From the NCBI GenBank assembly GCA_026417735.1, contig JAOACR010000009.1:139641-203640 (forward strand): a stretch of 64,000 nt of DNA, read 5' to 3'. Position numbers and translations under genes: made by a program. Shown here one piece after another: positions 21,089 through 40,949 of this stretch. How positions within the stretch are numbered: the first letter of the stretch is position 1; each line of letters opens with the position of its first letter. The DNA comes from Kiritimatiellia bacterium. GTDB lineage: Bacteria > Verrucomicrobiota > Kiritimatiellia > PWTM01. The notes beneath the pieces were generated by a model. The model had not been told where the DNA came from, ran no database searches, and saw only the letters and a list, made by a program, of their open reading frames with translations.

Positions 21089-21587
21089 CACAATCGCTCG
21101 GTTCCGCGCACAGGGATTCAACGGAAGTATCACGCACGCCCCGCCCCGCTGACAAGAACGATCTCTCGCCACACAGCCACCGGTGCTCCGCCCCTCCCGC
21201 CGAGCCCCGCCTTGACCCCAGGTCGCTCCGCCTACCACCCCACGCCTCTGGATCACCAGGGAACGCTGACCGCAGGTCCCACACAATTCTCTCGCTCCGC
21301 ACCCGCCTCGCCCAAGCGCAGATCCGGCCGCCCCCCTCCTGATGTCGCCCCTCTTCTGGCCGCCGTCAGCCGCCCCCTCGCCCCCCCAGCGATCGCGCCG
21401 CGCCCCACTCTCCCTCCCAGAACGCTGGCCTCATGCCAGCCAATGTATCGCGCAAACTCGTTGCGTGTTACGAGCCAAACATGCCGCAGAATGTGACTAA
21501 TGAACACTTATTACGCCACGGCTGAGTCATAAAAGGCGCATGGCTTTCTGTTCAATGTTCGACTGTGAAGTTGTTGGGGGATCTCGG

Positions 21588-21615
21588 TTGACGTGAATCT
21601 TTCGTGCTTTACAAT
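21588..21615 (+). promoter_or_regulatory. sigma70-like promoter candidate for the hox operon
   Basis: TTGACG (21588-21593), 16-nt spacer, TACAAT (21610-21615). It sits in a conspicuously AT-richer patch about 65 nt upstream of the hoxF ATG. Confidence 0.55.
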
Positions 21616-21679
21616 GCGCCCTTGCGTCCGCTAGCGCACTGGGATTGGCTCGGTGGGCGGCGGCGGGGAAGGCATCGTG

Positions 21680-23497
21680 ATGACGGCGGAAATTGGGCAA
21701 ACGGTTCGGCAGATTTGCGCGGCGTACCACAATGACGCGTCGCGGCTGATGGATATCGTCGAAGCCGTTCAGAGCCGGTTCGGTTGCGTCTCCAGCGCTG
21801 CGACCGATCTGATCGCGCAAGCACTGGGCATTCCACGGGTGGAGGTGCAGAGCACGGTGTCTTTCTACTCGTTCTTGTCGGAGCGGCCAAAAGGACGAGT
21901 GGTGATCCGTCTGTGCAGCGACCCGATTGACGAAATGTTCGGCATGCTGCCGGTCGCCAGGTCGTTCGAGGAGGCGCTGGGCATCCGCGTGGGCGAGACG
22001 ACGCCGGATGGTGCAATCTCGCTGGAGTGGACACCGTGCATCGGGATGTCCGATCAGGCCCCCGCGGCTCTGATCAACGACGTGGTCGTCACGTATCTGT
22101 CCACCGACAAGGCGCGGGAGATTGTCGCGGAGCTCCGCCGCAGCGGCGATCCCCGCAAGCTCGTCCACCGGCTCGGCGACGGCCACAACGCACATCCGCT
22201 TGTGCGCTCGATGGTCCACAACAACATCCGTCGCAAAGGGCCGGTGGTGCTCGCAGACCTTCCACCCGGCGCGGCCCTGCGAAAGGCGCTGGCGATGAGC
22301 CCGGTGGAGGTCATTCGCGACATCAAGACCTCTCGTCTACGCGGGCGGGGCGGGGCGGGATTCCCCACCGGCATGAAGTGGGAGTTCACCCGCCAGGCCG
22401 AGGGCAACCGGAAGTTTGTGATCTGCAACGCCGACGAGGGCGAGCCGGGCACCTTCAAGGACCGCGTGATCCTCACCGAGTACGCGGACCTGATGTTTGA
22501 GGGAATGGCGATCGCCGGCTACGCGATCGGCGCCAAGGAGGGCATTCTGTATCTCCGCGGCGAGTATGCCTACCTCCGGCCGCTGCTGGAGCACATCCTG
22601 CAGGTGCGGCGCGACGCCGGTCTGCTCGGACGCGACATCTGCGGCAAACGCGGATTTGAGTTCGACATCCGCATCCAGCTCGGCGCCGGCGCCTACGTGT
22701 GTGGCGAGGAGACCTCGCTGCTCAGCTCCTGCGAAGGACGCCGTGGCGATCCGAAGAACCGCCCCCCCTTCCCCGCGCAGAAGGGTTATCTCGGCTGTCC
22801 GACCTCGGTGAACAACGTGGAAACGTTCTGCTGCGTCGCGCGAATACTCGACCGCGGCCCCGGCTGGTTCGCGGAGATCGGCTCGAAAGGCAGCCCGGGC
22901 ACGAAACTGTTCAGCGTCAGCGGCGATTGCGCGGCGCCGGGCGTGTACGAATATCCCTTTGGCATCACGCTGGCAGAGCTGCTGCGCGACGTCGGTGCGG
23001 AAGATGTCCAAGCGGTGCAGGTGGGAGGGCCGTCGGGCCATCTCGTCGGCCCCGACAGTTTCCACCGCCGCCTCGAGTACGATGATCTGGCGACCGGCGG
23101 CTCGATCATGATCTTCAATTCCTCCCGCGACCTGGTCCATATTGTCCGAAAGTTCCTCGAATTCTTCGCGGACGAAAGCTGCGGCTACTGCACCCCTTGC
23201 CGGGTCGGCAACGTGCTACTGCTGCGCAAGATCGAGGAAATCCTGCACGGCCGTGGCACGCCGGACGATCTGCGTTACCTCGAGGAACTCTCCACCACCG
23301 TGAAGTTCGCCAGCCGCTGCGGACTCGGTCAGACCTCGCCGAATCCGGTGCTCTCGCTGTTGCGTAACTTCGCCGAGCCGATTCGGCGGCGCGTCGCGCC
23401 GCCCGCCGGTGAGCTGCTGCCGACCTTCGACATCCGCGCCGCGCTCGCCGACACCGAGAAACTCGTCGGCCGAACGTCGGTGATCTATGCGCCCTGA
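21680..23497 (+). CDS. hoxF: NAD(P)-linked [NiFe] hydrogenase diaphorase large subunit (NuoE-like + NuoF-like fusion)
   Basis: GRGGAGFPTGMKWEF (FMN/NADH site). ESCGYCTPCRVG (4Fe-4S N3-type). The N-terminal NuoE-like thioredoxin fold appears to lack the full Cys set (RLCSDPID, TPCIGMSD). The ATG at 21680 has GGGGAAGG upstream. Confidence 0.9.
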   Translation: MTAEIGQTVRQICAAYHNDASRLMDIVEAVQSRFGCVSSAATDLIAQALGIPRVEVQSTVSFYSFLSERPKGRVVIRLCSDPIDEMFGMLPVARSFEEALGIRVGETTPDGAISLEWTPCIGMSDQAPAALINDVVVTYLSTDKAREIVAELRRSGDPRKLVHRLGDGHNAHPLVRSMVHNNIRRKGPVVLADLPPGAALRKALAMSPVEVIRDIKTSRLRGRGGAGFPTGMKWEFTRQAEGNRKFVICNADEGEPGTFKDRVILTEYADLMFEGMAIAGYAIGAKEGILYLRGEYAYLRPLLEHILQVRRDAGLLGRDICGKRGFEFDIRIQLGAGAYVCGEETSLLSSCEGRRGDPKNRPPFPAQKGYLGCPTSVNNVETFCCVARILDRGPGWFAEIGSKGSPGTKLFSVSGDCAAPGVYEYPFGITLAELLRDVGAEDVQAVQVGGPSGHLVGPDSFHRRLEYDDLATGGSIMIFNSSRDLVHIVRKFLEFFADESCGYCTPCRVGNVLLLRKIEEILHGRGTPDDLRYLEELSTTVKFASRCGLGQTSPNPVLSLLRNFAEPIRRRVAPPAGELLPTFDIRAALADTEKLVGRTSVIYAP

Positions 23498-28375: not shown

Positions 28376-28416
28376 CCGCCCACCCGCTCGACTAGCGTCC
28401 CCACAGGGAGGTCACT

Positions 28417-29289
28417 ATGGATCGGTTGCGAACCGCAGGCGCAATCCTTGCCGTTGTCCACCGGATCGCCGCGGGGGCGGGGGAGCCGTTGGTGGTGCAT
28501 CTGTGGCCTGACCGGCCACCGGGCATGACCGGCGCGCCACCGGTCGAAACGGAACAGCCGGCGAAACAGGACGGCATTCGCCGGATCACGAACATCTATC
28601 CGCCGCGCATCGAGATGTACCGGGCCGAGCACCCCACCGGCGCCGCTATTCTGGTCTGCCCGGGCGGCGGATACAATATCCTGGCCATCTCGCACGAGGG
28701 CACCGACGTGGCCCGGTGGTTGAACAGCCTTGGTATTACCGCCGCGCTGCTCTACTACCGCGTGCCGAACCAGCGCGACGGCGCGTTCCAGGACGCCCAG
28801 CGCGCCCTCAGCCTGCTGCGTGCCCGAGCAGTGGAATGGGGTCTGCAGACCAATCGCCTCGGGGTGCTCGGCTTCTCCGCCGGCGGACATCTCGCCGCAA
28901 AGCTGGCGAGCCACGCCGGGCCACGCACCTACGAGCGCGTGGACGATGCCGACGACCTCTCGTGCCGCCCCGACCTCGCCGTGTTGGTGTACCCGGCCTA
29001 TCTGCTGGCCACCAACACCGCCGGCACTGCGGAGCTCGCTTTGCCCGCCGGCGCACACTGCCCCCCGGCCTTTCTTGTCCACGCCGCGGACGATCACATT
29101 TCTGCGGAGAATAGCGTCGCCTGGTTCCTGGCGCTGCGCCGGGCCGGCGTGCCGGCCGAGCTGCACGTTTACGCGAAGGGCGGCCACGGCTTCGGCATGA
29201 AGCGCGACCCGCCCGCGCCGGTGCGTACCTGGCCGGACCGCTGCGCCGACTGGCTGCGCGAACAGGGTTGGGCGCGAGACGGCGAGTGA
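28417..29289 (+). CDS. alpha/beta hydrolase (esterase/lipase-like), secreted
   Basis: GFSAGGHLAA nucleophile elbow (GxSxG). HAADD and GGHGFG motifs. N-terminal signal-like segment. Confidence 0.8.
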   Translation: MDRLRTAGAILAVVHRIAAGAGEPLVVHLWPDRPPGMTGAPPVETEQPAKQDGIRRITNIYPPRIEMYRAEHPTGAAILVCPGGGYNILAISHEGTDVARWLNSLGITAALLYYRVPNQRDGAFQDAQRALSLLRARAVEWGLQTNRLGVLGFSAGGHLAAKLASHAGPRTYERVDDADDLSCRPDLAVLVYPAYLLATNTAGTAELALPAGAHCPPAFLVHAADDHISAENSVAWFLALRRAGVPAELHVYAKGGHGFGMKRDPPAPVRTWPDRCADWLREQGWARDGE

Positions 29290-29353
29290 TGATCTGGACG
29301 CCACATCTCCGGGCGGTGCGCCTCGGCGCTGGGCCGGAAGCGCCGTGTGCGCG

Positions 29354-30496
29354 ATGACACCCCGGCAACGGTTGCTGACCACGTTGCGCGGTGAACGTGC
29401 GGACCGCGTGCCGGTGTCCCCCTTCGTGCAGGAGGAGTATCTCTCGTGGTACTGGCCCGACCGTCCGACGGTGGACCGCGTCGTGGACGCAACCGAGCTG
29501 GCCGAAGAACTGGACTTCGATCTCATCGCGAAGCCGCGCGCGCTGGAGCCGCCGCATTTCCTCCGTCGAAGCCGGCCGGGCTGGGAGGTGGTGCAGACCG
29601 AATCGGTCGAGGGCGGCCTGCAGGTGCGCCGGCTCGAAATCCGCGCACCGGACCGCACGCTCTGCCGGGAGGACTCGCGCCCGCTTGCGGGCGCCGCGAC
29701 GGCCGGGCTGAGCTGGACGCCACAGCGCCCGCTGCTGGCCGACCGCGATGACATTGAATGGTTCGCCGACCACCGCCCGGCGCTCGATGAAAGCGACCGC
29801 GAGGAGATGCGGCAGGTGATCGCGCAGTGGCGGCGGGTGCTGGGCGAGCGCGGGGTGCTGGCGCCCTGGGGATTCGCGGGCGTGTTCAACGTCGCCGCAG
29901 AACTGATTGGCATGGACCGGCTCTACGTGTTGCCGTATGAAGATGAGTCGCTCTACCGGCGGTTGATGGAGTCGCTCAGCGCGGCCGAATGCGAGTACAA
30001 CGCCGCGCTCGCTGCGGCCGGCGCCGATGCGATCGGGCTGCAGGGTCACATCGCGGGCGGCGCGTCGGTAGGGCCGGAGTTTTTCCGCGATTTCGTTCTG
30101 CCGTACGAGCGGCGGGTGATCGAGGCGATCCACGCGGCCGGCGCGTTCACGGTGTATCACAACTGCGGCTTCGCGCGCTCGCTCTACGAGAACTACCTTG
30201 AGCTCGGGATGACCGTCTGGGAAACGGTGGCGCCGCCCCCCCGGGGTGACAACTCGCTCGCCGAGGCGAAGGCGCGGCTGGGCGAGCGAATCATACTGCT
30301 CGGCAATCTCGACCAGGTCGATTTTCTCAAACGCGCATCGCCGGCGGAGGTCGCCGCGCAGACGCGCGAGATTGTCCGCACCGGCAAACCCGGCGGCCGC
30401 TACATCTTCTCCACCTCCGACTTTCTCGAGCGCGGGACGCCGAGAGAGAACGTCGTCGCGATGATCGAGGCGGCGAAAGCGGAGGGGCGGTACTGA
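29354..30496 (+). CDS. uroporphyrinogen decarboxylase (URO-D) family protein, MtaA/CmuA-like paralog
   Basis: MTPRQRLLTTLRGERADRVPVSPF... and YHNCG..., GNLDQV motifs typical of the URO-D superfamily. It lacks the hemE PVWxMRQAGRY signature, which is present in the true hemE at 35176..36273. Confidence 0.75.
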   Translation: MTPRQRLLTTLRGERADRVPVSPFVQEEYLSWYWPDRPTVDRVVDATELAEELDFDLIAKPRALEPPHFLRRSRPGWEVVQTESVEGGLQVRRLEIRAPDRTLCREDSRPLAGAATAGLSWTPQRPLLADRDDIEWFADHRPALDESDREEMRQVIAQWRRVLGERGVLAPWGFAGVFNVAAELIGMDRLYVLPYEDESLYRRLMESLSAAECEYNAALAAAGADAIGLQGHIAGGASVGPEFFRDFVLPYERRVIEAIHAAGAFTVYHNCGFARSLYENYLELGMTVWETVAPPPRGDNSLAEAKARLGERIILLGNLDQVDFLKRASPAEVAAQTREIVRTGKPGGRYIFSTSDFLERGTPRENVVAMIEAAKAEGRY

Positions 30497-31429: not shown

Positions 31430-32465
31430 GCGAGGCCTCCGAGGGCTGGACGTAGCAGGGCCGGATCACACGGCAGCCCAGGCGGGCCAGCTCCTCCTCC
31501 AGCCGCAGGAACATCGCGTCGCCGTCGTACGTGCCGACGATCGCGCCGCCGGATCCGGTGAACTTCGCGCTCGCGCCGACGCTACGCGCGGCCTCGACCA
31601 TCCGGATGTTCCCTCGGCTGATCTTGTAGATCGAGCGGCGGAGGTCAAAGTTCGCGTTCAGCAGCGGGCCGATCTCCGCGCCCCGCCCGGCGAGCAACAG
31701 CTCCCGGACCCGCAGCGCGAGGTCCGCCCAGGTGCGCATCGCCGCATGCACCTGCGGGTCACCCGCCTCCCACCGCGCGCGGATGTTGTTGTGAAACACC
31801 TCGGTGCCTTCCGCGAGGTCGCGCCGGTACGCAATGTACAGCGGCGGCAGCAGCTTCAGGTCGAGCCGCTCGTAGTGGCCATAGCCCTGCCGCTCCATCA
31901 GCTGCCGGTCGAAATCCATGTACACCAGCCCGTCGTACACCTGCGCGACGCGGTCCTGCAGGCCGGCCGGAATGCCGAGTTCAGCGGTCTCGACCGACAG
32001 CACCAGGTTCGCGAACACCGGCAATGCAATCTGAACGCCGTAGAACGCGCACAGCGCGCGCATGCACGCGGTGATGATCGCGCTGGAGCCGGCCAGCCCC
32101 ACTTGCTGCGGGATGTCCGAATGGTACTCCACCGTAAAATTGCGCGGCGGCAGCTCGATCCCTTGCGCCGAGCAATGGTCGTAAAACCGCTTGATCGTTG
32201 CCTTCAGCAGCCGGACTCCGCCGTAGTAGCCATGTCGCCGCACGTCCTCGGCCAGCGCGGAAATCGAGTCGAAGATCGATAGGTCCCGGTCCGCCGGCAG
32301 AATCTGCAGCCGCGGCGACTCGTACAGTGTGACGGTCGCCCGAAAGTTCGAAAAGGTAAACGAAATCGTCCGGCCGAAATAGCCGTCCGAAGGGTTGCCA
32401 ATCAACCCGGCGCGCGGATAGGCATGGGCTTGAATCAACACGCGGTACGAGCTGCCAATGCGCAA
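31419..32465 (-). CDS. GHMP-family sugar kinase (glucuronokinase-like?)
   Basis: GLAGSSAIITA GHMP motif 2. N-terminal GLIGNPSDGYFG. The 3' end overlaps the galU start by 11 nt. The TTG start at 32465 is uncertain; a GTG a few codons in is possible. Confidence 0.75.
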   Translation of the reverse strand: MRIGSSYRVLIQAHAYPRAGLIGNPSDGYFGRTISFTFSNFRATVTLYESPRLQILPADRDLSIFDSISALAEDVRRHGYYGGVRLLKATIKRFYDHCSAQGIELPPRNFTVEYHSDIPQQVGLAGSSAIITACMRALCAFYGVQIALPVFANLVLSVETAELGIPAGLQDRVAQVYDGLVYMDFDRQLMERQGYGHYERLDLKLLPPLYIAYRRDLAEGTEVFHNNIRARWEAGDPQVHAAMRTWADLALRVRELLLAGRGAEIGPLLNANFDLRRSIYKISRGNIRMVEAARSVGASAKFTGSGGAIVGTYDGDAMFLRLEEELARLGCRVIRPCYVQPSEASHGS

Positions 32466-32571
32466 ATGCTACCACCCCGCGCCTCCCTCGCCAATGTCGG
32501 CCGTTCCGCCGCCCGCCCCGAGTACCGGTGCGACTTGCACGCGCCACAGGGCACCGCAAGATCATGCGGCG

Positions 32572-33315
32572 ATGAGCGCGATGCTGCCGCCATCGATCGA
32601 ACCGGAACTGATCGCCCGGTGCCCCACTTTTGCGAGCGGTTCGCTGCGGTGCGTCGTGGAGACCGCCGCACATCCGGGCGCGTTTGCAGACGAGCTGGCC
32701 GCCGCCGTCGCCGACGCGGCAGCGACGCCGCTGGAGGCGATCGCGCAGCACCCGATCATCTCCGCCACGCGGGAGCTCTACCGCCGTTGCGGCAAGGATC
32801 CGAGCCGCTATCGACCCGCCGCCGAGCAGCTCCGGCGCCGCGCAGTCCGCGGCGCGGGGCCACACCCCGTTCACCCGCTCGTGGACATCGTGAACTGGCT
32901 ATCGCTGCGGACCGGTTTTTCGATCAGCGGCGTGGACGCCGCGGCGCTGCGCGGCCAGCTCCGCTGGGGCATTGGTCGCGCCGGAGAACCCTACGAGGCG
33001 ATCGGCCGAGGCCCGCTCAACATTGCCGGGCTCCCGGTGCTGCGAGACGACCTCGGACCATTCGCGTCGCCGACGAGCGATTCGGTCCGCGCACGCATTC
33101 GCGAGGACACACGGGACGTTCTGATCGTTCTTTGCGCGCCCGCCGGCCGCGAGGGCCTTGCCGGAGCGCTCCAGATGGCCCGGGTGGCGCTGGTCACCGT
33201 GCTCGCCGCGCGGCAGATCGAACTACATATCGTCGAGGCGGCGACCGGCGGGTCCGCCACGACCGAGCGAAATTTGGAAAACCATTCCCGATCCGCAACA
33301 GAAAAACTTCAGTAG
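32572..33315 (+). CDS. B3/B4 tRNA-binding-domain-like protein (COG3382-like)
   Basis: ATG at 32572 within ORF 32458..33315. ATRELYRRCGKDPSRYRPAAEQLRRR...HPLVDIVNWLSLRTGFSISGVD resembles the PheT B3/B4-like family. Confidence 0.6.
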   Translation: MSAMLPPSIEPELIARCPTFASGSLRCVVETAAHPGAFADELAAAVADAAATPLEAIAQHPIISATRELYRRCGKDPSRYRPAAEQLRRRAVRGAGPHPVHPLVDIVNWLSLRTGFSISGVDAAALRGQLRWGIGRAGEPYEAIGRGPLNIAGLPVLRDDLGPFASPTSDSVRARIREDTRDVLIVLCAPAGREGLAGALQMARVALVTVLAARQIELHIVEAATGGSATTERNLENHSRSATEKLQ

Positions 33316-33689
33316 CAGCGCTCCCCGGGCAACAGCCGGCCGCCGGGACCCGCGCGCCGATCGCTGCCGACCGTCACGCTACGGGCAGTTGCGTCAAACA
33401 CGCGCGGCGACCATTTCAGCGGCGCGGCGTTCGAGCCTCCGCGGCGAGAGCGGCGGCCACTCGGCTGGCTGCAGGCTCGGATCGGTGCGCGCGCGGCGCG
33501 CCATCGAAGCGATCGCCTTGCCGGCGGCCGCCGACGCCGCACGCGGGTTGCGCGCCCGCCCCCGATTCGCCCGCAGACTCGGGGTGATCCCGTCGCCACA
33601 ACCCCGAAACTCACCTGCATGCGTCCGGCGCCCCAGCGCTCATTCGAACAACACCTCCCACGGCCCATCGCCGTTCCCATCCTCGACGG

Positions 33690-33833
33690 TCAAGCCAGCT
33701 TCGGAAATATTAGAGAGCACCAGCCGTCCAACATGAGGTCTTCGATCTCGCTTCGCAACGCCAAGTTACTGAACCCGATCCTCTGGCATGCTTCATCAAG
33801 GAGTGATTCAATCGCGTTCACATCCCCTTCCAT
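33690..33833 (-). CDS. small acidic hypothetical ORF (47 aa), possibly frameshifted
   Basis: My own translation; the ORF is below the track length cutoff. MEGDVNAIESLLDEACQRIGFSNLALRSEIEDLMLDGWCSLIFPKLA. It lies in the low-GC islet about 75 nt downstream of the preceding ORF. Confidence 0.25.
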   Translation of the reverse strand: MEGDVNAIESLLDEACQRIGFSNLALRSEIEDLMLDGWCSLIFPKLA

Positions 33834-33911
33834 CTCTGGCGTCACGTACTTGTTCGCGATGTCTTAGCTGGCGGCCATGAGGACACGCTTGCCAGTCGGC
33901 GCTGTGATTGT

Positions 33912-34358
33912 TTACCTGAACGTGCGCATGTTAGTTTCTCCCGAATATCCGGCCCTAGATACGGAGATTTTGGCAATGGTCCCGCTGTTCTTTTCCTTCG
34001 CCATAACCATTTTCATCTTCGGCGGGTTTCCGAACAGCTGGAGGTGGCGGGTAACGGCTTCGCGCCCCAGGTGGTCGCCACAGTACTCTTGATACCACTT
34101 GTCGCGGTAAGTCTTACCATAAAACGATCGAACCAACGGCTCACCACGCCTCCGACTGCAAACAAACAGCGGGTCCACGCCGCGCCGATACCACGCCGGA
34201 CCCTCAAAGTGCCGCCACTGGGCCTTTTCGTGGAATACCCGCTTTGGGGCTTTCAGCACGCGATTCATGCCTTCGACACCGTCAACCGCAGGAACATAGA
34301 GCGTGATCACGCGCGTTCTCGAATTATAGGTGTCGAGAGTTGCGCCTGATTTGCGCAT
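33912..34358 (-). CDS. hypothetical protein (148 aa, Trp/Tyr/Arg-rich), low-GC islet gene
   Basis: The ATG at 34358 lies 5 nt after the upstream stop (34364-34366). MRKSGATLDTYNSRTRVITLYVPAVDG...KTYRDKWYQEYCGDHLGREAVTRHLQLFGNPP.... This is the C-terminal part of track ORF 33912..34685. I recognise no family. Confidence 0.5.
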   Translation of the reverse strand: MRKSGATLDTYNSRTRVITLYVPAVDGVEGMNRVLKAPKRVFHEKAQWRHFEGPAWYRRGVDPLFVCSRRRGEPLVRSFYGKTYRDKWYQEYCGDHLGREAVTRHLQLFGNPPKMKMVMAKEKNSGTIAKISVSRAGYSGETNMRTFR

Positions 34359-34363
34359 CACTC

Positions 34364-35092
34364 TTACCGAAACTTTGTCGTCCTCATCTCGTTGAGCACG
34401 TCTTCGGGGAGCAAGGAGAGCATGTTGGTGACATAGCCGGCAACCGCCCGCGACGGATACGGACCGCGGGTGTACGGCGACCGGATCGACGCTCTCATTT
34501 GCGTGGCGGTACTTCCGTGATCCTTTCTGAGATCGCGAAGAACTCCGGCAATTTCCTTGCGCGTCCAGGCATTTCGCTTGTCCAATCCGCGCGCGGAGAT
34601 GGTCGCTTTCCAAGTGTCGCCGCCACCGAGGAGAGGGCGCGCCACCGGCGCGACCGGCGCTGTGATCGGGCCGCCGCCCAGCCATTCAAACGGGCTGCGG
34701 CTGTCATCGAGCTTGATGTCCTTTGCCGTTCGCTCGGACTGCGCCCAGACGGTCGCGCCGTAATGCTCGCGCAGGCTCGCCAGCGGCATCCTCAGGTCTG
34801 CCGGATGCCAACGGTAGGCCTTTGCCGGGTCATCGCCGCGCTCGGTCGCCCGCTCCGCCGGTGTCCGCACGTCCACTGGATGTCCGTCGCCCAGATCGAG
34901 GGTCCGGTTCCGCGGATCGGTCATGCACTGCTCGACCGCCGGCGTGGGCGTCCATCCGCGCGGATCGCCCGGTTTGTACCCTCGCGTCTCCTCGAACTCC
35001 TCCGGGGTGATTGGCACCAGCTGGCAGCGGCAGTTGTACTCCCAGGGCATATCGTGATCCTTCCAGAACGGATGGTCCGCCGGCAGGATCAA
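34364..35092 (-). CDS. hypothetical protein: phage Mu F/SPP1 gp7-like terminal stub (NCRC motif) plus ~200-aa unknown domain
   Basis: N-terminus (M)ILPADHPFWKDHDMPWEYNCRCQLVPIT. Start is TTG at 35092 or ATG at 35050, with an in-frame TGA 5 codons upstream of the TTG. hemE ends 83 nt upstream on the same strand. GC falls toward the 3' end. Confidence 0.55.
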   Translation of the reverse strand: MILPADHPFWKDHDMPWEYNCRCQLVPITPEEFEETRGYKPGDPRGWTPTPAVEQCMTDPRNRTLDLGDGHPVDVRTPAERATERGDDPAKAYRWHPADLRMPLASLREHYGATVWAQSERTAKDIKLDDSRSPFEWLGGGPITAPVAPVARPLLGGGDTWKATISARGLDKRNAWTRKEIAGVLRDLRKDHGSTATQMRASIRSPYTRGPYPSRAVAGYVTNMLSLLPEDVLNEMRTTKFR

Positions 35093-35175
35093 CCCGTTGG
35101 CGCGACCTCATCACTGACGGCGATATGGCAGCACGCGCGGAAATGCAGCCCTGATCTGCGCCTGAGCGGGCCGCC

Positions 35176-36273
35176 TTATGGGGGGAAGGAGGCGAGCTGG
35201 GCCGCCGGTCGGCGTGTTGCCAGGTGCACGAACTCGACGAGATCGCGGATTCGGGCGGGATCGGTTTCCTTTGGCACGCCATGGCCGAGGTTGAAGATGT
35301 GCCCCGGGCGGTTGCCTGCGCGCCGGAGAACCTCGCGGGCGGCGGCAAACATCGCACGGCGCGGGCCCAACAGCTGCCGTGGGTCCAGATTCCCCTGCAC
35401 TGCGAACCCGCCGCCGAGCTGCTGCCAGGCTTCGTCCAGGGGAATGTCCTCGCCCACCGAAATCACCTCCGCGCCGGCGCTCCGCATCGCGGAAAGCAGA
35501 TGAGATGAGCGGCCGGCGAAGAGAATGGCCGGCACCGTCGTTGGCCGGCAGGCGGCGCGCAGTGCGCGGGCAGCCGCGGGCAGCGCCCAGCGGCGGTACG
35601 CGCCGGGATCCAAGACAGCGGCCCAGGTGTCGAACAGTTGCACCGCCGAAGCGCCGGCGCGGATCTGCGCCGCGAGCAACCCTCCGGCGAGCTCTGCGAG
35701 CACACGGAGCCATCGCGCCCACGTGCGGGGATGCTCAGCGGCAAAGCGGAGCGCGGGCCCCGCGCCACGTGAACCACCGCCACCCAGCGCATACACCGCC
35801 AGCGTAAACGGTGCGCCCGCAAAACCGATCAGCGGCACCCTCCCCTTCAGCACACGGCGTAAGTTGCGCAGCGCCCCAAGGGTCGGCTCGATCGCGGCCA
35901 GCCCCTCGTCGAGCCGATCGGCGGCGCGCCGCACATCGGCCGGTTCGCAGATCGGCCGCTCGAATACCGGCCCACGCCCCTCAACAAACCGCAGACCCAG
36001 GCCGAGGCCGTCGAGCGGCAGCAGGATGTCTGAAAACACGATCGCGGCGTCCACGCCGAACGCCTCCAACGGCTGCAGCGTGATCGCGGCGGCCTGGTCG
36101 GGGTCCCGCAGCAGTTCGAGCATTGAGTGGCGGGCCCGCAGCCGGCGATACTCCGGCATGTACCGGCCAGCCTGGCGCATGAACCACACCGGTGTGCAAT
36201 CGGTCGGTTGACGCCGACACGCCGCCAGAAACCGCGGTTCCCGAACGGCCGCCGTCCGCAGGGTCGCCGTCAT
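35176..36273 (-). CDS. hemE: uroporphyrinogen decarboxylase
   Basis: The ATG at 36273 overlaps the hemL stop (ATGA). TPVWFMRQAGRYMPEYRRLR signature. Confidence 0.92.
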   Translation of the reverse strand: MTATLRTAAVREPRFLAACRRQPTDCTPVWFMRQAGRYMPEYRRLRARHSMLELLRDPDQAAAITLQPLEAFGVDAAIVFSDILLPLDGLGLGLRFVEGRGPVFERPICEPADVRRAADRLDEGLAAIEPTLGALRNLRRVLKGRVPLIGFAGAPFTLAVYALGGGGSRGAGPALRFAAEHPRTWARWLRVLAELAGGLLAAQIRAGASAVQLFDTWAAVLDPGAYRRWALPAAARALRAACRPTTVPAILFAGRSSHLLSAMRSAGAEVISVGEDIPLDEAWQQLGGGFAVQGNLDPRQLLGPRRAMFAAAREVLRRAGNRPGHIFNLGHGVPKETDPARIRDLVEFVHLATRRPAAQLASFPP

Positions 36274-37586
36274 CGCTTGGGCGCACGCTCGCCGCGCGGC
36301 TCGTCCACCGCGAGCATTTCCAGCGCCCGGCGCCATACCGGCAACGTGGATTCGAGCACCTCGTCGGTGTGCGCGGTGGAGAGAAACGCGACCTCAAACG
36401 CAGAAGGCGGAAGATACACCCCGCCGGCCAACAACGTGTGAAACAGCGGGCGGAACCGTTCTGCCTGTTCGGCGGGGATCTCTTCGAAACATCGCGGCGC
36501 GCGCTCACCAAAGAACATCGAAAAGAGGCTGCCGCGGACGACGAACTCGACGGCGGCACCTGCCGCGGCAGCCAGATCCCGCAGCTCCGCCACATAGGCG
36601 GCGGTGCGCCGTGCAAGGTCAGGCCATGGGCGCTCGGCCTTCAGACACCGCAGCGTCGCCAGCCCCGCCGCCACCGAGATCGGATTGCCGCTCAGCGTAC
36701 CGGCCTGATAGACAGGTCCGTCCGGTGCCAGCAGGTCCATCAGCGCCGCGCGGCCGCCCACCGCGCCGACGGGTAGTCCTCCGCCGATGATTTTCCCGAG
36801 GCAGATGAGGTCGGGCCGGATGGCGCCCGGCTCGAGCGTCTGCACGCTGCCCCAGCCGAACCGAAAACCCGTGATCACCTCGTCCCAGATCAAAAGCGCG
36901 CCCACCGCCGCGGCGCGGTCCGCGACTGCGCGAAGAAAGCCCGGCTCCGGCGGAATCAGACCGGCGTTCGCTGGTATCGGCTCCAGAACGATCGCGGCGA
37001 GTTCCCGGCCGTGCTCCGTGAGCACGCGGTCCACATCCTCGATGTGATTGAACCGCGCGATCAGCGTCTGCTGGGCCCAGGCGCGCGGGACGCCGGCGGA
37101 GGAGGCCTCTGCGAGTCCCGCGACGCCGCTGCCCGCGCGTACGAGCAGCCCGTCCGCATGGCCGTGGTAGGCACCGCTGAACTTCAGAATCCGGTCGCGG
37201 CCGGTCGCACCGCGCGCGATCCGCAACGCGGTCATGCACGCCTCGGTGCCGGAGTTGACAAGGCGAACGCGATCCACCGAGGGAATCGCCGAGACGATCT
37301 CCTCCGCCAGCTCCACTTCCGCCTCCGTGGTCACCGCGAAGCTGGTGCCGCGCGCGGCGGCCTCGGCAACCGCGGCAACAACCTCGGGCCGTGCGTGGCC
37401 GAGGATCAGTGGGCCGAACGACATGCAGAAATCCACCAGCCGGCGCCCGTCCACCGTGTGCAGATGCGCTCCCTCTGCACGGCGTGCGAAAATCGGCGTA
37501 CCGCCCACTGCGCGGAAGGCACGAACGGGGCTGTTCACGCCACCCGGCAGCACGGCCCGGGCGCGCTCGGCGAGCGGGGCGGTCAC
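36270..37586 (-). CDS. hemL: glutamate-1-semialdehyde 2,1-aminomutase
   Basis: The GTG at 37586 overlaps the hemB stop (GTGA). LPGGVNSPVRAFRAVGG, SGTEACMTALRIARG and ITGFR motifs. The rest of the 760-aa track ORF is read-through across hemB. Confidence 0.9.
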   Translation of the reverse strand: MTAPLAERARAVLPGGVNSPVRAFRAVGGTPIFARRAEGAHLHTVDGRRLVDFCMSFGPLILGHARPEVVAAVAEAAARGTSFAVTTEAEVELAEEIVSAIPSVDRVRLVNSGTEACMTALRIARGATGRDRILKFSGAYHGHADGLLVRAGSGVAGLAEASSAGVPRAWAQQTLIARFNHIEDVDRVLTEHGRELAAIVLEPIPANAGLIPPEPGFLRAVADRAAAVGALLIWDEVITGFRFGWGSVQTLEPGAIRPDLICLGKIIGGGLPVGAVGGRAALMDLLAPDGPVYQAGTLSGNPISVAAGLATLRCLKAERPWPDLARRTAAYVAELRDLAAAAGAAVEFVVRGSLFSMFFGERAPRCFEEIPAEQAERFRPLFHTLLAGGVYLPPSAFEVAFLSTAHTDEVLESTLPVWRRALEMLAVDEPRGERAPKR

Positions 37587-38641
37587 GGCTGCCTCCGGCG
37601 ACGCGCGGCGAGACGGCGCAGGCGTGTCGGCCGACGGCCCGGGGTGCCCTCTGTCCCCCGGGGAGGAGAGGAGCTCATCCACTCGATCAACGCCGGTGCC
37701 AGATAGCTGACCACCGCAGCGGCGCCGGCGCGGTGAAAGGCGGTGATCGTTTCCAGCGTCGCCGCGCGCAGGTCCATCGCGCCCGCCGCAGCCGCGTGCC
37801 AGAGCATCGCGAACTCTCCAGAGACCTGGTAGGCGAGCACCGGCACCGGCACGCTCTCGCGCACCTCCCGCACCAAGTCTAGACACGGCAGACCCGGTTT
37901 CACGATCAGCGCGTCGGCGCCCTCCTCCACGTCGCGCCGGGCCGCCCGCAACGCCAGACGCCGTGCGGCGGGCGGCAGCTGGTAGGCGCGCCGGTCGCCA
38001 AATGCGGGCGCCGAACGCGCGGCTTCGCGAAACGGCCCATAGAACACCGAGGCGAACTTCACCGCATAGCTCAGGATCGCGCAGGATGGCCGACCGGCCT
38101 CCCGCAGCGCGGCGCGGATCGCGGCGACCCGGTTGTCCATCATGTCCGAGGGCGCCACCACATGCGCGCCGGCAGCGGCGTAGGCGGCAGCGATGCGCGC
38201 GAGCCGGGCGATCGTCGCGTCGTTGTCCACGGTGCCGTCGGGGCGCAGCAACCCGCAATGGCCGTGGTCGGTCCATGCGCAGAGGCACACGTCGGCGATG
38301 AGCAGCAGTTCCGGATAGGCGGCCCGCAGGCTCGCCAACGCGCGCACCACCGGCGAGCGGTCCGAATCGGCGCGGGATCCGGTCGCGTCCTTGCCGTCCC
38401 GCGGGACGCCAAACAGCAGCACCGCCCGCAGGCCCGCGGCAACCGGCTTGTCCAACGCCTCGTGCAGCCGCCCGACGCCCCACCGAAACTGGCCGGGCAT
38501 CGCCTCGATGGGTTCCCGCGCGCCCGGCTTGTCGGTCACAAACAGCGGCCACACGAGCCGGTTCGGAGCCGGGCCACCATCCGCCTGCCAGACGCGCAGA
38601 ATCTCATGCGAATAGCCCGGATGCAGTTCCACTCGGCTCAT
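37583..38641 (-). CDS. hemB: porphobilinogen synthase (delta-aminolevulinate dehydratase), Cys-rich Zn-type site
   Basis: The ATG at 38641 overlaps the hemCD stop (ATGA). LVWPLFV, DVCLCAWTDHGHCG (Zn-type Cys triad) and DALIVKPGLPCLD motifs. Confidence 0.9.
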   Translation of the reverse strand: MSRVELHPGYSHEILRVWQADGGPAPNRLVWPLFVTDKPGAREPIEAMPGQFRWGVGRLHEALDKPVAAGLRAVLLFGVPRDGKDATGSRADSDRSPVVRALASLRAAYPELLLIADVCLCAWTDHGHCGLLRPDGTVDNDATIARLARIAAAYAAAGAHVVAPSDMMDNRVAAIRAALREAGRPSCAILSYAVKFASVFYGPFREAARSAPAFGDRRAYQLPPAARRLALRAARRDVEEGADALIVKPGLPCLDLVREVRESVPVPVLAYQVSGEFAMLWHAAAAGAMDLRAATLETITAFHRAGAAAVVSYLAPALIEWMSSSPPRGTEGTPGRRPTRLRRLAARRRRQP

Positions 38642-40005
38642 TCGATCATTTCTCCGTCCAGCCCGGCCTCGCGCAGCGCCCGCAGTGTCGTTGGCCCGAT
38701 CGCGAGCCGCCGGCGGCCCACCAGCCGCTCGCCGGGATAATACCGCACCCACGCCGCCACCGTGCTCGGACTCGTGAAGACGACGCCCGCGAACGGTCGC
38801 GACGGCAGCGGGCCGGGATAGTGGTCCCGCGTGTAATAGAACACCGCTGCGCGCAGCTCGATGCCACGCCCGGACATGGCTCGGCGGCGTTCGTCAATCG
38901 GAGAACGGTCGGAAGCCGGATAAAAGCAGCAACGCGCGGCCCCCTCAGGAATTTCTCGCAGCAGCGAGCCGACACCGCCAAAGTCGTGTGCGGTCGCATC
39001 CGGGGGGAACCCCAGCCGCTCCGCAGCGTCACCCGCGGCCGGTCCCACCGCATAGATGCGGGGGCGGCGAGTCTGGCGAACAGCGCCGGCCCAGTGCGTC
39101 CAGGCGTGCACGAACGCGCGCGCCGCAAAGGCGGACGCAAACACGAGCGCGTCGCAGCCGGCCCAGTGCCGCTCCAGCTCCGCAAGACGCTCTTCCAATG
39201 GCCGTGGCTCGAGCTGGATCATGGGCCAAGGGACCAGGGGTCCCAACCGGCTGAAGTGGTCCGGATGGGTACCGGTAAAGAGCAGGGCGTCGGCCGGCCA
39301 GTCCGCGGGGGCCGAGGGCAGCTCGGTCGGTGCATCGAAGAGATCGCGGCGGAAATCGAGCGGTCGGATCGCGGCAATGAGATCGGTCTCCTCCGAGCGG
39401 GCGACCACCGCCAGGTGTCCCTGCAGCGGCGCTGCATCGCCCGGCAGGTAACCGTGGATCCGGCCGGCCAGCCCCAGCCGGATCAGCGCGCAGGCGGCGA
39501 CCACGATTGCGTCGTAATCGCCGCGGTCCAGCGCGGCGAGTCGCTGCTCAATGTTGCCCCGAATCGGTCGTGTCTGCGCCGCCGGCAACAGAGCGCGGAC
39601 CGCCGCATCGCGCCGCGGCGTGCTGGAGCCGACCACCCGCACGCCGTGCGGCCACGCGACTCCATCGCGAAGCACCAGCGCGTCGCGGGGGTCGAGCCCC
39701 GGCAGCAACGCGGCGACGGTCAGTCCCTCTGGCGGCCGCCGCGGGAGGTCTTTCGCGGAGTGAACCGCCAGATCGGCGCCGTGTTCGAGGAGCAATTGGT
39801 CGAGGTCGCGCGTAAAAAAATCGTCCGGCAGCGACGGGTCGGACAACGGCGTCGTGCGGTCACGATCGCCCGGCGTCTCGGCGAACACCAGCTCAAACTC
39901 GGTGCCGGCCGGCAGGACGCGGCGCAGTGCGGCCACCGCTTCGTCCACCTGTGCGCGCGAAAGCGGGCTCGGTCGCGCGGCGATCCTCAGCGCGCGGCGG
40001 CCCAT
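38638..40005 (-). CDS. hemCD: fusion protein: hydroxymethylbilane synthase domains 1-2 + uroporphyrinogen-III synthase
   Basis: ATG at 40005. HemC-like LRIAARPSPLS..., PGDRD, DLAVHSAKDLP, GSSTPRR, IRGNIEQRLAALDRGDYDAIVVAACALIRLGL (~217 aa). HemD-like ALLFTGTHPD...PMIQLEP, DALVFASAFAARAF, VVFTSPSTVAAW. Confidence 0.8.
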   Translation of the reverse strand: MGRRALRIAARPSPLSRAQVDEAVAALRRVLPAGTEFELVFAETPGDRDRTTPLSDPSLPDDFFTRDLDQLLLEHGADLAVHSAKDLPRRPPEGLTVAALLPGLDPRDALVLRDGVAWPHGVRVVGSSTPRRDAAVRALLPAAQTRPIRGNIEQRLAALDRGDYDAIVVAACALIRLGLAGRIHGYLPGDAAPLQGHLAVVARSEETDLIAAIRPLDFRRDLFDAPTELPSAPADWPADALLFTGTHPDHFSRLGPLVPWPMIQLEPRPLEERLAELERHWAGCDALVFASAFAARAFVHAWTHWAGAVRQTRRPRIYAVGPAAGDAAERLGFPPDATAHDFGGVGSLLREIPEGAARCCFYPASDRSPIDERRRAMSGRGIELRAAVFYYTRDHYPGPLPSRPFAGVVFTSPSTVAAWVRYYPGERLVGRRRLAIGPTTLRALREAGLDGEMIE

Positions 40006-40949
40006 TCGCGCGCCCCCATCGCAATGACCCGAGCGGCAATCTCCGCGCGGCGCCGTCGCTCCTCCAGATTGGTCTGCGCCATCGCTTCGATCTCGCGCAA
40101 GGGCACCACCCTCACCTCTTCCAACCCGGCAACATCCGCGGCGCAGTCCGGCGGCGCACCCAGATCTACAATCAGCAGGGGCCGGCCGGCGCCGGCGAGA
40201 TGCCGGGCATACAGGACGGGGTGGGGCGCGGCGGTCGCGCAGACGATTCCACGCACGCCGTCTAGGAGCGAACTCAACGAGTCCAGTCCGCCCGCAAAGC
40301 CACCGCACTGCGCGGCGACCCGCAACGCGTTCTCCGGGCAGCGCCCCGCAACGCGGATCGCGACCGCCCCCTGCCGCGCCAGCCGCCGGGCAACCGAGGT
40401 CGCCAGCGACCCCGATCCGATCACGCCGATCGGTTCCGACACCGACACTTCGTCCAGCAGCCGGCGGACCGCGAGCGTCGCCAGCGAAGTCATGGACTCA
40501 TCAATCCGGCTCTCGCGCCGCGCGCGGCGGGCCAGAGCCAGCGCATCCTGGAAGATTCGATCAAGCTCCGTGGCATCCGCGCCGCCCTGTTCACGAAACC
40601 GGCGGTAGGCCTCTCGTACCTGCCCGAGGATTTCCAGCTCGCCGAGAAGGCGGCTTTCCAGGCCGGCCGCGATGCGGGCGAGCCGTTCGAACGCCTCCAC
40701 CCCCGCCCAACGGCGTCCGGGCACCGCCAGCTCCGCAGGTTCAGTGGCGCCATACCACTCGAGGCGCTGGCATGTGTTCAGCACCAGCGCCCTGCCCGCA
40801 AGCCGTTCCTCCAGCTCCGCCGCAATTACTGCACGCCGGCACGGCTCCGTAATGTCCACCGACCCGGCCTGCAGCACACAGCGGCGAGGCTCCCCGGCGG
40901 CTCGAATCGCCTTGCCGCCGTGAACGAGACCTGCCCGACTCGAAATCAC
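39987..40949 (-). CDS. hemA: glutamyl-tRNA reductase (short form, ~320 aa)
   Basis: LNTCQRLEWYG (catalytic Cys, TCNR-like). ESRLLGELEILGQVREAY. NADPH-binding GVIGSGSLATSVARRL. GTG start at 40949 with GAGGAG just upstream. The 3' end overlaps hemCD by 19 nt. Confidence 0.8.
   Translation of the reverse strand: MISSRAGLVHGGKAIRAAGEPRRCVLQAGSVDITEPCRRAVIAAELEERLAGRALVLNTCQRLEWYGATEPAELAVPGRRWAGVEAFERLARIAAGLESRLLGELEILGQVREAYRRFREQGGADATELDRIFQDALALARRARRESRIDESMTSLATLAVRRLLDEVSVSEPIGVIGSGSLATSVARRLARQGAVAIRVAGRCPENALRVAAQCGGFAGGLDSLSSLLDGVRGIVCATAAPHPVLYARHLAGAGRPLLIVDLGAPPDCAADVAGLEEVRVVPLREIEAMAQTNLEERRRRAEIAARVIAMGAREWAAAR

Follow-up and report, generated by a model that had tools for sequence, protein, structure and literature searches.

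The window analysed here, 64,000 nucleotides of contig JAOACR010000009.1 from a Kiritimatiellia bacterium (all coordinates below are window positions), carries a row of heme biosynthesis genes, hemA-hemC/D-hemB-hemL-hemE, all on the minus strand. The last of them, hemE, encodes an intact uroporphyrinogen decarboxylase (35176..36336, minus strand; Pfam URO-D, E 1.2e-107, positions 4-344/346) and has its stop codon at 35176-35178. Convergent with hemE is an intact gene with a B3/B4 domain (32458..33315, plus strand; Pfam B3_4, E 7.9e-13). Between these two genes, which form the left and right flank, respectively, lies an islet of low G+C content in which three open reading frames (ORFs) can be drawn on the minus strand: ORF1 (35107/35092-34364), ORF2 (34355-33912) and ORF3 (33845-33690). 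An initial annotation had described this islet as a foreign cassette of two or three separate ORFs with no recognisable function. Its position directly behind hemE, on the same strand, holds. However, the supposedly functionless genes turn out to be fragments of three collinear phage head genes, all on the minus strand, and the islet is very probably a non-functional 1.8-kb relic of the head-morphogenesis module of a Mu-like tailed phage, caught between hemE and the B3/B4 gene.

The drop in G+C content that first drew attention to the locus is real, and is the strongest compositional anomaly in the 64 kb. Mean G+C of the window is 0.681 (standard deviation 0.031, 500-nt windows), with a minimum of 0.548 at 33701-34200. 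Positions 33690-34660 have a G+C content of 0.573, corresponding to z = -4.5 against all 971-nt windows, the lowest value elsewhere being 0.621. The earlier hand counts were exact when recounted, with 29/60 G+C at 33901-33960 and 38/60 at 35221-35280. Sliding G+C, tetranucleotide and codon adaptation analyses all deviate at the islet: tetranucleotide distance reaches its window maximum at 33601 (z = 5.1), and the codon adaptation index (CAI), for which the window's own genes served as reference (native 150-codon pieces, 0.670 +/- 0.068), is 0.523 in the last 99 codons of ORF1, 0.496 in ORF2 and 0.456 in ORF3. The first 148 codons of ORF1 (34664-35107) show native-like usage, with a CAI of 0.705 and a G+C content at third codon positions (GC3) of 0.82-0.84. 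ORF1 is open across 247 codons with an overall GC3 of 0.78, and codon-position G+C gives a coding look to the ORF1, ORF2 and ORF3 frames alike. The compositional deviation starts within ORF1: although the islet does deviate, as had been proposed, the deviant part is limited to about 33690-34660 instead of reaching to the end of hemE. The 375 nt on its other side, at 33316-33690, have a G+C content of 0.739.

We found no tRNA near the islet, and no copy of islet sequence elsewhere in the window or repeat at its borders, in agreement with the earlier remark that integrase, tRNA and repeats are missing there. The lack of a convincing terminator also stands up, as three terminator-like hairpins were found for 2.7 expected from shuffled sequences, and a terminator and promoter scan gave nothing above chance.

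Searched as called, the ORFs had no match in Pfam, PADLOC or the PDB, and across these databases and NCBIfam they gave only weak matches to the C-terminal motif of MuF, the minor head protein of Mu-like phages. A word-indexed search of 5.8 billion proteins with ORF1 and ORF2 returned the query alone. Scans of viral contigs with single ORFs and tblastn of ORF2 against GenBank phages had no match, and a single-sequence AlphaFold model of ORF2 was unusable, with a predicted local distance difference test score (pLDDT) of 33. With ORF1, tblastn against GenBank phages found only weak matches, confined to the first ~50 residues, in the Mu F-type genes of several of them. The public gene calls at this locus, P0001 (34364-35050, 228 aa) and P0002 (33912-34310, 132 aa), each remain a singleton in a clustering of 5.8 billion proteins because they are fragments of a pseudogene. 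An exhaustive phmmer search with ORF1 against 1.84 billion representative proteins gave a completely different picture, with 415 relatives, 194 of them at E <= 1e-10. The word-indexed search, which had missed even a 55%-identical relative, had misleadingly suggested orphan genes, and for such loci the choice of search method may thus decide the interpretation, as it did here when one method found the query only and the other found hundreds of relatives.

Nearly all relatives of ORF1 are 440-560 aa long. As the alignment with ORF1 covers their residues ~150-300, extending to 381 in the best cases, ORF1 is a piece from the interior of a longer protein. With P0003 (527 aa), its best relative, the match has E 1.9e-89 and 55% identity (query 4-243, target 142-381). 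ORF1 itself (34364..35107, minus strand) corresponds to residues 142-380 of P0003 and constitutes the first segment of the MuF relic. It keeps the last ~27 residues of the Phage_Mu_F domain (LILPADHPFWKDHDMPWEYNCRC) and the conserved middle region that follows. Similarly, residues 3-46 of ORF1 (LPADHPFWKDHDMPWEYNCRC...) align with the last part of profiles for minor head proteins of phages: phrog_220 ("minor head protein and DNA pilot") is matched at E 1.7e-7, and TIGR01641 (SPP1 gp7) aligns with 15.2 bits (cut-off 39.65) over profile positions 78-108/109 only. Being a fragment of a family member, ORF1 falls short of the family threshold, with no Pfam match at E <= 1. Its full-length relatives do pass the threshold of Phage_Mu_F (PF04233; 57.5 bits, cut-off 29.6): P0003, P0007 and P0009 score 57-67 bits, and every relative examined at E <= 1e-10 carries PF04233. 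The islet is thereby homologous to bona fide members of this family, and ORF1 and ORF2 together cover residues 142-515 of P0003.

The two ORFs are not separate genes. With tblastn, residues 142-380 of P0003 map on 35098-34382 in the ORF1 frame and residues 383-515 on 34370-33969 in the ORF2 frame. As P0003 continues from one frame into the other, ORF1 and ORF2 are two frames of a single truncated MuF gene, split by a frameshift at 34367..34382 (near 34372), on either side of which P0003 residues up to 380 and from 383 onwards are read in different frames. The main part of ORF2 (33969..34370, minus strand; 46% identity in tblastn) is the second segment of the relic and corresponds to a C-terminal zincin-like domain, in which the HExxH motif is degraded to HEKAQ at 34232-34218 (FHEKAQW at 34235-34215, the second His being replaced by Gln at 34220-34218).

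Lesions were located base by base, by three-frame translation and by alignment with the DNA of L241, the viral contig that carries P0003. The MuF relic spans about 35150-33931 (minus strand) and lacks its first ~117-141 codons. Its putative outermost trace, at 35104..35149 (about codons 118-135 of P0003), reads "AAFP" in one frame and "HIAVSDEV" in another, and is followed by a deletion of ~19 nt in which the invariant His138 was lost. Tandem stops (TGA TGA) stand at 35113-35108, and the invariant Pro158 has become Met. At the other end, a second frameshift near 33970 brings the gene into a third frame (33931..33969, minus strand), where NLRI*GRIFGRN* (asterisks are stops) corresponds to the end of P0003, ENLRIFGRIFRGG*. 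This last portion contains an in-frame TAG (33957-33955) before the original stop at 33933-33931. The arrangement of MuF stop, one base and ATG of the next gene is preserved at 33933-33927, exactly as in L241.

The next gene is a small one (33640..33929, minus strand), with ~96 codons in the relic and 97 aa in L241. Residues 1-71 of the small protein of L241 map on 33929-33720 with 51% identity and E 6.7e-18 (whole window), the match scoring 68.9 bits while the maximum among 40 shuffled queries was 28.9. Its ATG is at 33929, and the reading frame is broken by TAA stops at 33914-33912 and 33866-33864 and by a frameshift near 33708, beyond which the tail ISEAGLTVEDGNGDGPWEVLFE matches IKESGCVAENWNDGGSWTVLTE in another frame, down to the original stop at 33642-33640. 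The third ORF of the initial annotation is merely the middle piece of this small gene, which has two in-frame stops.

Finally, the 375-nt stretch of high G+C content that had been taken for a non-coding gap holds a third broken phage gene and is part of the same foreign segment. This gene (33348..33620, minus strand) is a relic of a Mu G-like virion morphogenesis gene, whose relatives belong to the PF05069 family (the G protein of L241 matches PF05069 at E 2.6e-10). It starts with an ATG at 33620 (MQVSFGVV), is frameshifted near 33597 and 33425, and breaks off after codon ~106 of 156, with the B3/B4 stop about 30 nt further on. In tblastn, two parts of the L241 G protein map here, residues 10-67 on 33594-33421 (71% identity) and residues 79-106 on 33431-33348 (64%), with a joint E of 2.8e-15 (whole window). 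In addition, tblastx of 33200-33975 gave matches to ~15 viral contigs, just downstream of their MuF genes.

Intact phages provide the original arrangement. A scan with a family alignment, which succeeded where single ORFs had failed, placed 112 relatives on IMG/VR viral contigs of 20-40 kb. The closest contig, L241, has the order helix-turn-helix (HTH) gene, MuF, 97-aa ORF, G and head maturation protease, and its MuF (E 1e-108), small protein and G map collinearly onto the window, with no other matches in the 64 kb. L241, L242 and L245 share the relic's order of MuF, small ORF and G. Contigs L242-L244 and L245, which carry more distant relatives, display a Mu-like layout, with a transposase (phrog_310/151), a MuB-like transposition ATPase (phrog_296, AAA_22) and Mu Gam, and continue with MuF, a small ORF, a PF05069 G gene, a Mu-like protease, the gpT major head protein and Mu Gp36; both a DDE transposase and a MuB-like ATPase are present in L242 and L245. 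Transposable phages insert almost anywhere, and need no integrase, tRNA or attachment site. With a Mu-like transposable donor, the missing integrase and tRNA are therefore no puzzle. A separate feature of these donor-related Mu-like phages is a bAvd gene (PF22296, an accessory protein of diversity-generating retroelements), located a few hundred bases upstream of MuF in L242 (7910-8341), L243 (544-975) and L244 (65-496).

The same intact relatives account for the G+C pattern. In L241, G+C content is 0.68 in the N-terminal part of MuF (residues 1-290), 0.55-0.57 in its C-terminal part (residues 291-527), 0.56 in the small ORF and 0.74 in G; the corresponding values in the relic are 0.68, 0.59, 0.53 and 0.75. 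Among 13 intact relatives with a P0003-type C-terminal domain, the part coding for this domain has a lower G+C content than the N-terminal part in 12, the difference averaging 0.063 and reaching 0.125 at most. As the same dip exists in intact L241, the trough was inherited from the donor phage and marks no insertion border: what it delimits is a mosaic cassette within the phage and not the insertion into the host. Reading the trough as the outline of the insertion, as was done initially, mistakes an internal feature common to intact phage relatives for a boundary, and the borders drawn from it have to be moved. The foreign segment extends from about 33348 to about 35150, ~30 nt from both flanking stops. 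A G+C trough need not outline a foreign insert, as half of the foreign DNA here has a host-like or higher G+C content.

The foreign origin proposed earlier is supported, and the element is a prophage remnant of the ordinary kind, with no functioning toxin or defence module in it. What remains, in phage order, is the 3' three-quarters of MuF, the small gene and the 5' two-thirds of G. Homology, collinearity, the lesions and the trough shared with intact relatives are direct observations. In total, the three genes carry five or more frameshifts and between three and five premature stops; the two outer ones are cut short, and the catalytic motif has been lost. With these lesions, nothing in the islet can still serve as a component of a phage, as a toxin or as an immunity protein. 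In contrast, the hem genes on the flank and many window ORFs of 900-1100 codons are intact, which indicates that the lesions reflect local decay and not a sequencing artefact.

As to how the relic arose, a whole Mu-like prophage would have inserted into the short spacer between the convergent hemE and B3/B4 genes. Deletions from both sides would then have proceeded until halted where hemE or the B3/B4 gene would be damaged, while point mutations and indels piled up in the phage DNA left between them. We favour this route, decay in place of a whole prophage, as the probable one. Since the relic begins ~30 nt from the hemE stop and no terminator is seen, it may now be co-transcribed as a passive 3' tail of the heme operon transcript, without functional consequence.

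Several points weigh against this interpretation, or against parts of it. No empty site was found among hemE relatives, the best of which (in GTDB genomes and JGI metagenomes) are only 51-53% identical; at 160 hemE loci, there was neither a B3/B4 gene nor an ORF1 or ORF2 homologue near hemE. With relatives this distant and lacking a B3/B4 gene nearby, an empty site is not definable. Exact-sequence look-ups of proteins encoded in the window itself matched nothing on record elsewhere. A search of the 64-kb window revealed no transposase and no further phage gene, so that the Mu-like transposable nature of the donor, which appears likely, is drawn from relatives sharing just 31-55% protein identity. 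The pieces of the G relic, taken alone, are below Pfam and PHROG significance, and are recognised by pairwise and translated phage matches only. The outer 45 nt of the MuF relic (35104-35149) are a weaker assignment, as they depend on a short gapped alignment in which several indels are needed. Lastly, the clean coding signature in the first 148 codons of ORF1 (GC3 0.82) could be read as residual selection. Against L241, where protein identity is 46-55%, synonymous sites are saturated.

The main competitor of in-place decay concerns the arrival route only and leaves the nature of the relic unchanged. Under this alternative, a 1.8-kb piece of phage DNA, resulting, for example, from an aborted infection or from degraded or transduced DNA, would have been captured directly by illegitimate recombination or end-joining and would have decayed afterwards. 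Both ends of the relic lie within phage genes, ~30 nt from the host stops, and no phage ends, transposase or other phage genes exist in the 64 kb, as expected for a captured fragment; moreover, one event is simpler than an insertion followed by at least two precisely limited deletions. However, stepwise deletion bounded by essential neighbours is how prophages commonly end, and the relatives are transposable phages, for which insertion can take place anywhere. The sequence does not separate the two routes, and we regard fragment capture as possible, if rather unlikely.

Three other explanations are each contradicted by the lesions. Indel errors do occur in long-read assemblies, and the genome might then truly contain intact F, small-ORF and G genes. 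But at least five frameshifts within 1.8 kb contrast with the intact hem genes and 900-1100-codon ORFs around them, and three of the lesions are substitutions to stop codons, another is a 19-nt deletion, and the outer genes are physically truncated by host DNA. Such lesions are not explained by errors, and we consider an artefact of this kind extremely improbable. ORF1 (228-247 aa) might still work, as a MuF derivative that lost its N-terminus, was domesticated for a new host function and is expressed by read-through from hemE. It is on the same strand as hemE with no terminator detected between them, it was predicted by a gene caller (P0001), and its 247 open codons combine a GC3 of 0.78 with native-like usage over the first 148. 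Yet about three-quarters of the MuF domain is missing (profile positions 78-108/109 are left), the invariant Pro158 is lost, the frame ends in the middle of the C-terminal domain through a frameshift, no counterpart of the truncated form exists among the 1.84 billion representatives, and the neighbouring relic genes are all broken. Native-like codon usage is also found in the intact phage gene, and is therefore no sign of host selection on ORF1, whose continued function we hold to be very improbable. The suggestion that two or three small foreign genes form an active toxin/immunity, addiction or defence cassette behind an essential operon drew on the low G+C content, the small ORFs and their position, and could be reinforced by the counterpart in intact phages, which has the MuF polymorphic toxin layout with a small downstream ORF (PMC5576092). 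It fails because none of the three ORFs matches a PADLOC family at E <= 1 and not one reading frame is left whole: ORF1 and ORF2 belong to a single frameshifted gene, HEKAQ stands in place of HExxH, and the small ORF has two stops and a frameshift. In addition, the MuF delivery domain is truncated and no phage particle genes are left for delivery, so that an active cassette has next to no chance of being correct. In this genome the heme operon is not followed by an addiction or defence module, and its two "hypothetical proteins" are pseudogene fragments of a phage relic that should be annotated as such.

In intact phages, the region that is dead here has a regular organization. At 80 viral loci (L161-L240), the distance from MuF to G is -9 to +108 nt when MuF is short (up to ~350 codons) and lacks a C-terminal domain; behind long MuF genes (435 codons or more) it is 155 nt or more, and a small ORF occupies the space. 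The presence of this small ORF depends on the C-terminal extension of MuF. At loci with a P0003-type C-terminal domain, the small ORFs are intact, encode 86-98 aa and form one weakly conserved family in 10 of 13 cases; loci with other MuF C-terminal domains carry unrelated small ORFs. Neither the C-terminal domain nor its small partner has a Pfam model of its own. In an alignment of 23 sequences of the domain (A2), invariant residues are H139, E140, H143, W144, R164, Y188, E196 and P208. Pfam SprT-like is touched by four of the 23 members (best E 4e-7), others touching DUF6782 or Tox-MPTase3. The AlphaFold (AF2) model obtained from the alignment is confident, with a pLDDT of 87.7. Its PDB matches are weak, none reaching E <= 0.001, and almost all are zincins (anthrax lethal factor at E 0.018 and probability 0.96, selecase, Wss1); among viral structures in BFVD, the best match has E 7.7e-7, and matches comprise phage metalloproteases, "head morphogenesis domain" proteins and polyvalent proteins.

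By analogy with known effector systems, the MuF C-terminal domain and the small ORF of intact phages may form an effector-partner cassette. Tentatively, the ~240-aa zincin-like (HExxH...E) domain and the ~90-aa protein might represent, in Mu-like phages of environmental bacteria, an undescribed pair, a virion-delivered metallopeptidase with its immunity protein or inhibitor, exchanged as a unit between the MuF core and G. Such a pair may act as toxin and immunity, or as protease and inhibitor or substrate. The consistent pairing of a zincin-type C-terminal domain with a small ORF, both of lower G+C content than the rest of the phage, provides a modest lead for phage-delivered effectors. The same MuF core is also found fused to other C-terminal domains, namely ADP-ribosyltransferase (PF03496), HipA-like kinase, PI3/PI4-kinase (PF00454), PF15644 and PF18810. 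Proteins with such alternative domains are P0012, P0162, P0166, P0167, P0194, P0196, P0202 and P0004, the last of which has an "HNHPSG" motif that looks JAB/RadC-like by eye.

The rest of the window offers three observations unrelated to the relic. Within the heme operon, hemC and hemD are fused in one ORF (38638-40308, minus strand) with porphobilinogen deaminase and uroporphyrinogen-III synthase domains. A second, divergent URO-D-like ORF (29201-30496, plus strand, 431 aa) lies 5 kb from hemE and adjoins an alpha/beta-hydrolase gene (28396-29289); its match to PF01208 (positions 141-344, E 2.6e-30) is confined to the C-terminal ~200 residues. Finally, the second-lowest G+C content of the window, ~0.62 in 1-kb windows, is found at about 21400-22400, just upstream of, and into, an ORF at 21635-23497.

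Among known systems, the closest to the relic are the minor head proteins F (gp30) of phage Mu and gp7 of SPP1, whose C-terminal signature (...PADHPFW...PWEYNCRC) it retains, although only the last ~27 residues of the Phage_Mu_F domain are kept in the window and the gene is dead. Its relatives share with phage Mu the gene order F, G, protease and major head; unlike in Mu, small HTH genes and not the portal gene precede MuF in the relatives examined. The intact relatives also resemble MuF polymorphic toxins, in that a constant MuF N-terminus is combined with a variable C-terminal domain and followed by a small ORF. According to Jamet et al. 2017 (PMC5576092), ~20% of the MuF toxins of temperate phages have a metallopeptidase domain and 89% have a small ORF behind them. 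The layout also fits the MuF-linked effectors of polyvalent proteins, for which Iyer et al. 2017 (PMC5512222) propose packaging into the phage head and injection along with the DNA. The relatives differ from described MuF toxins in that their C-terminal domain has no Pfam model and gives weak PDB fold matches. As for the window, its cassette is inactivated: neither the N-terminal delivery domain nor the catalytic residues of a MuF toxin are intact, and the small ORF (<150 aa) that directly follows MuF survives as a relic interrupted by two stops and a frameshift. The locus as a whole is best compared with cryptic or defective prophage remnants, which likewise appear as a short odd stretch of broken structural genes between housekeeping genes, with no integrase or attachment site left. 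Compared with usual remnants of this type, it is unusually small (1.8 kb, three gene fragments), half of it is not compositionally odd, and it derives from the middle of the phage instead of its end.

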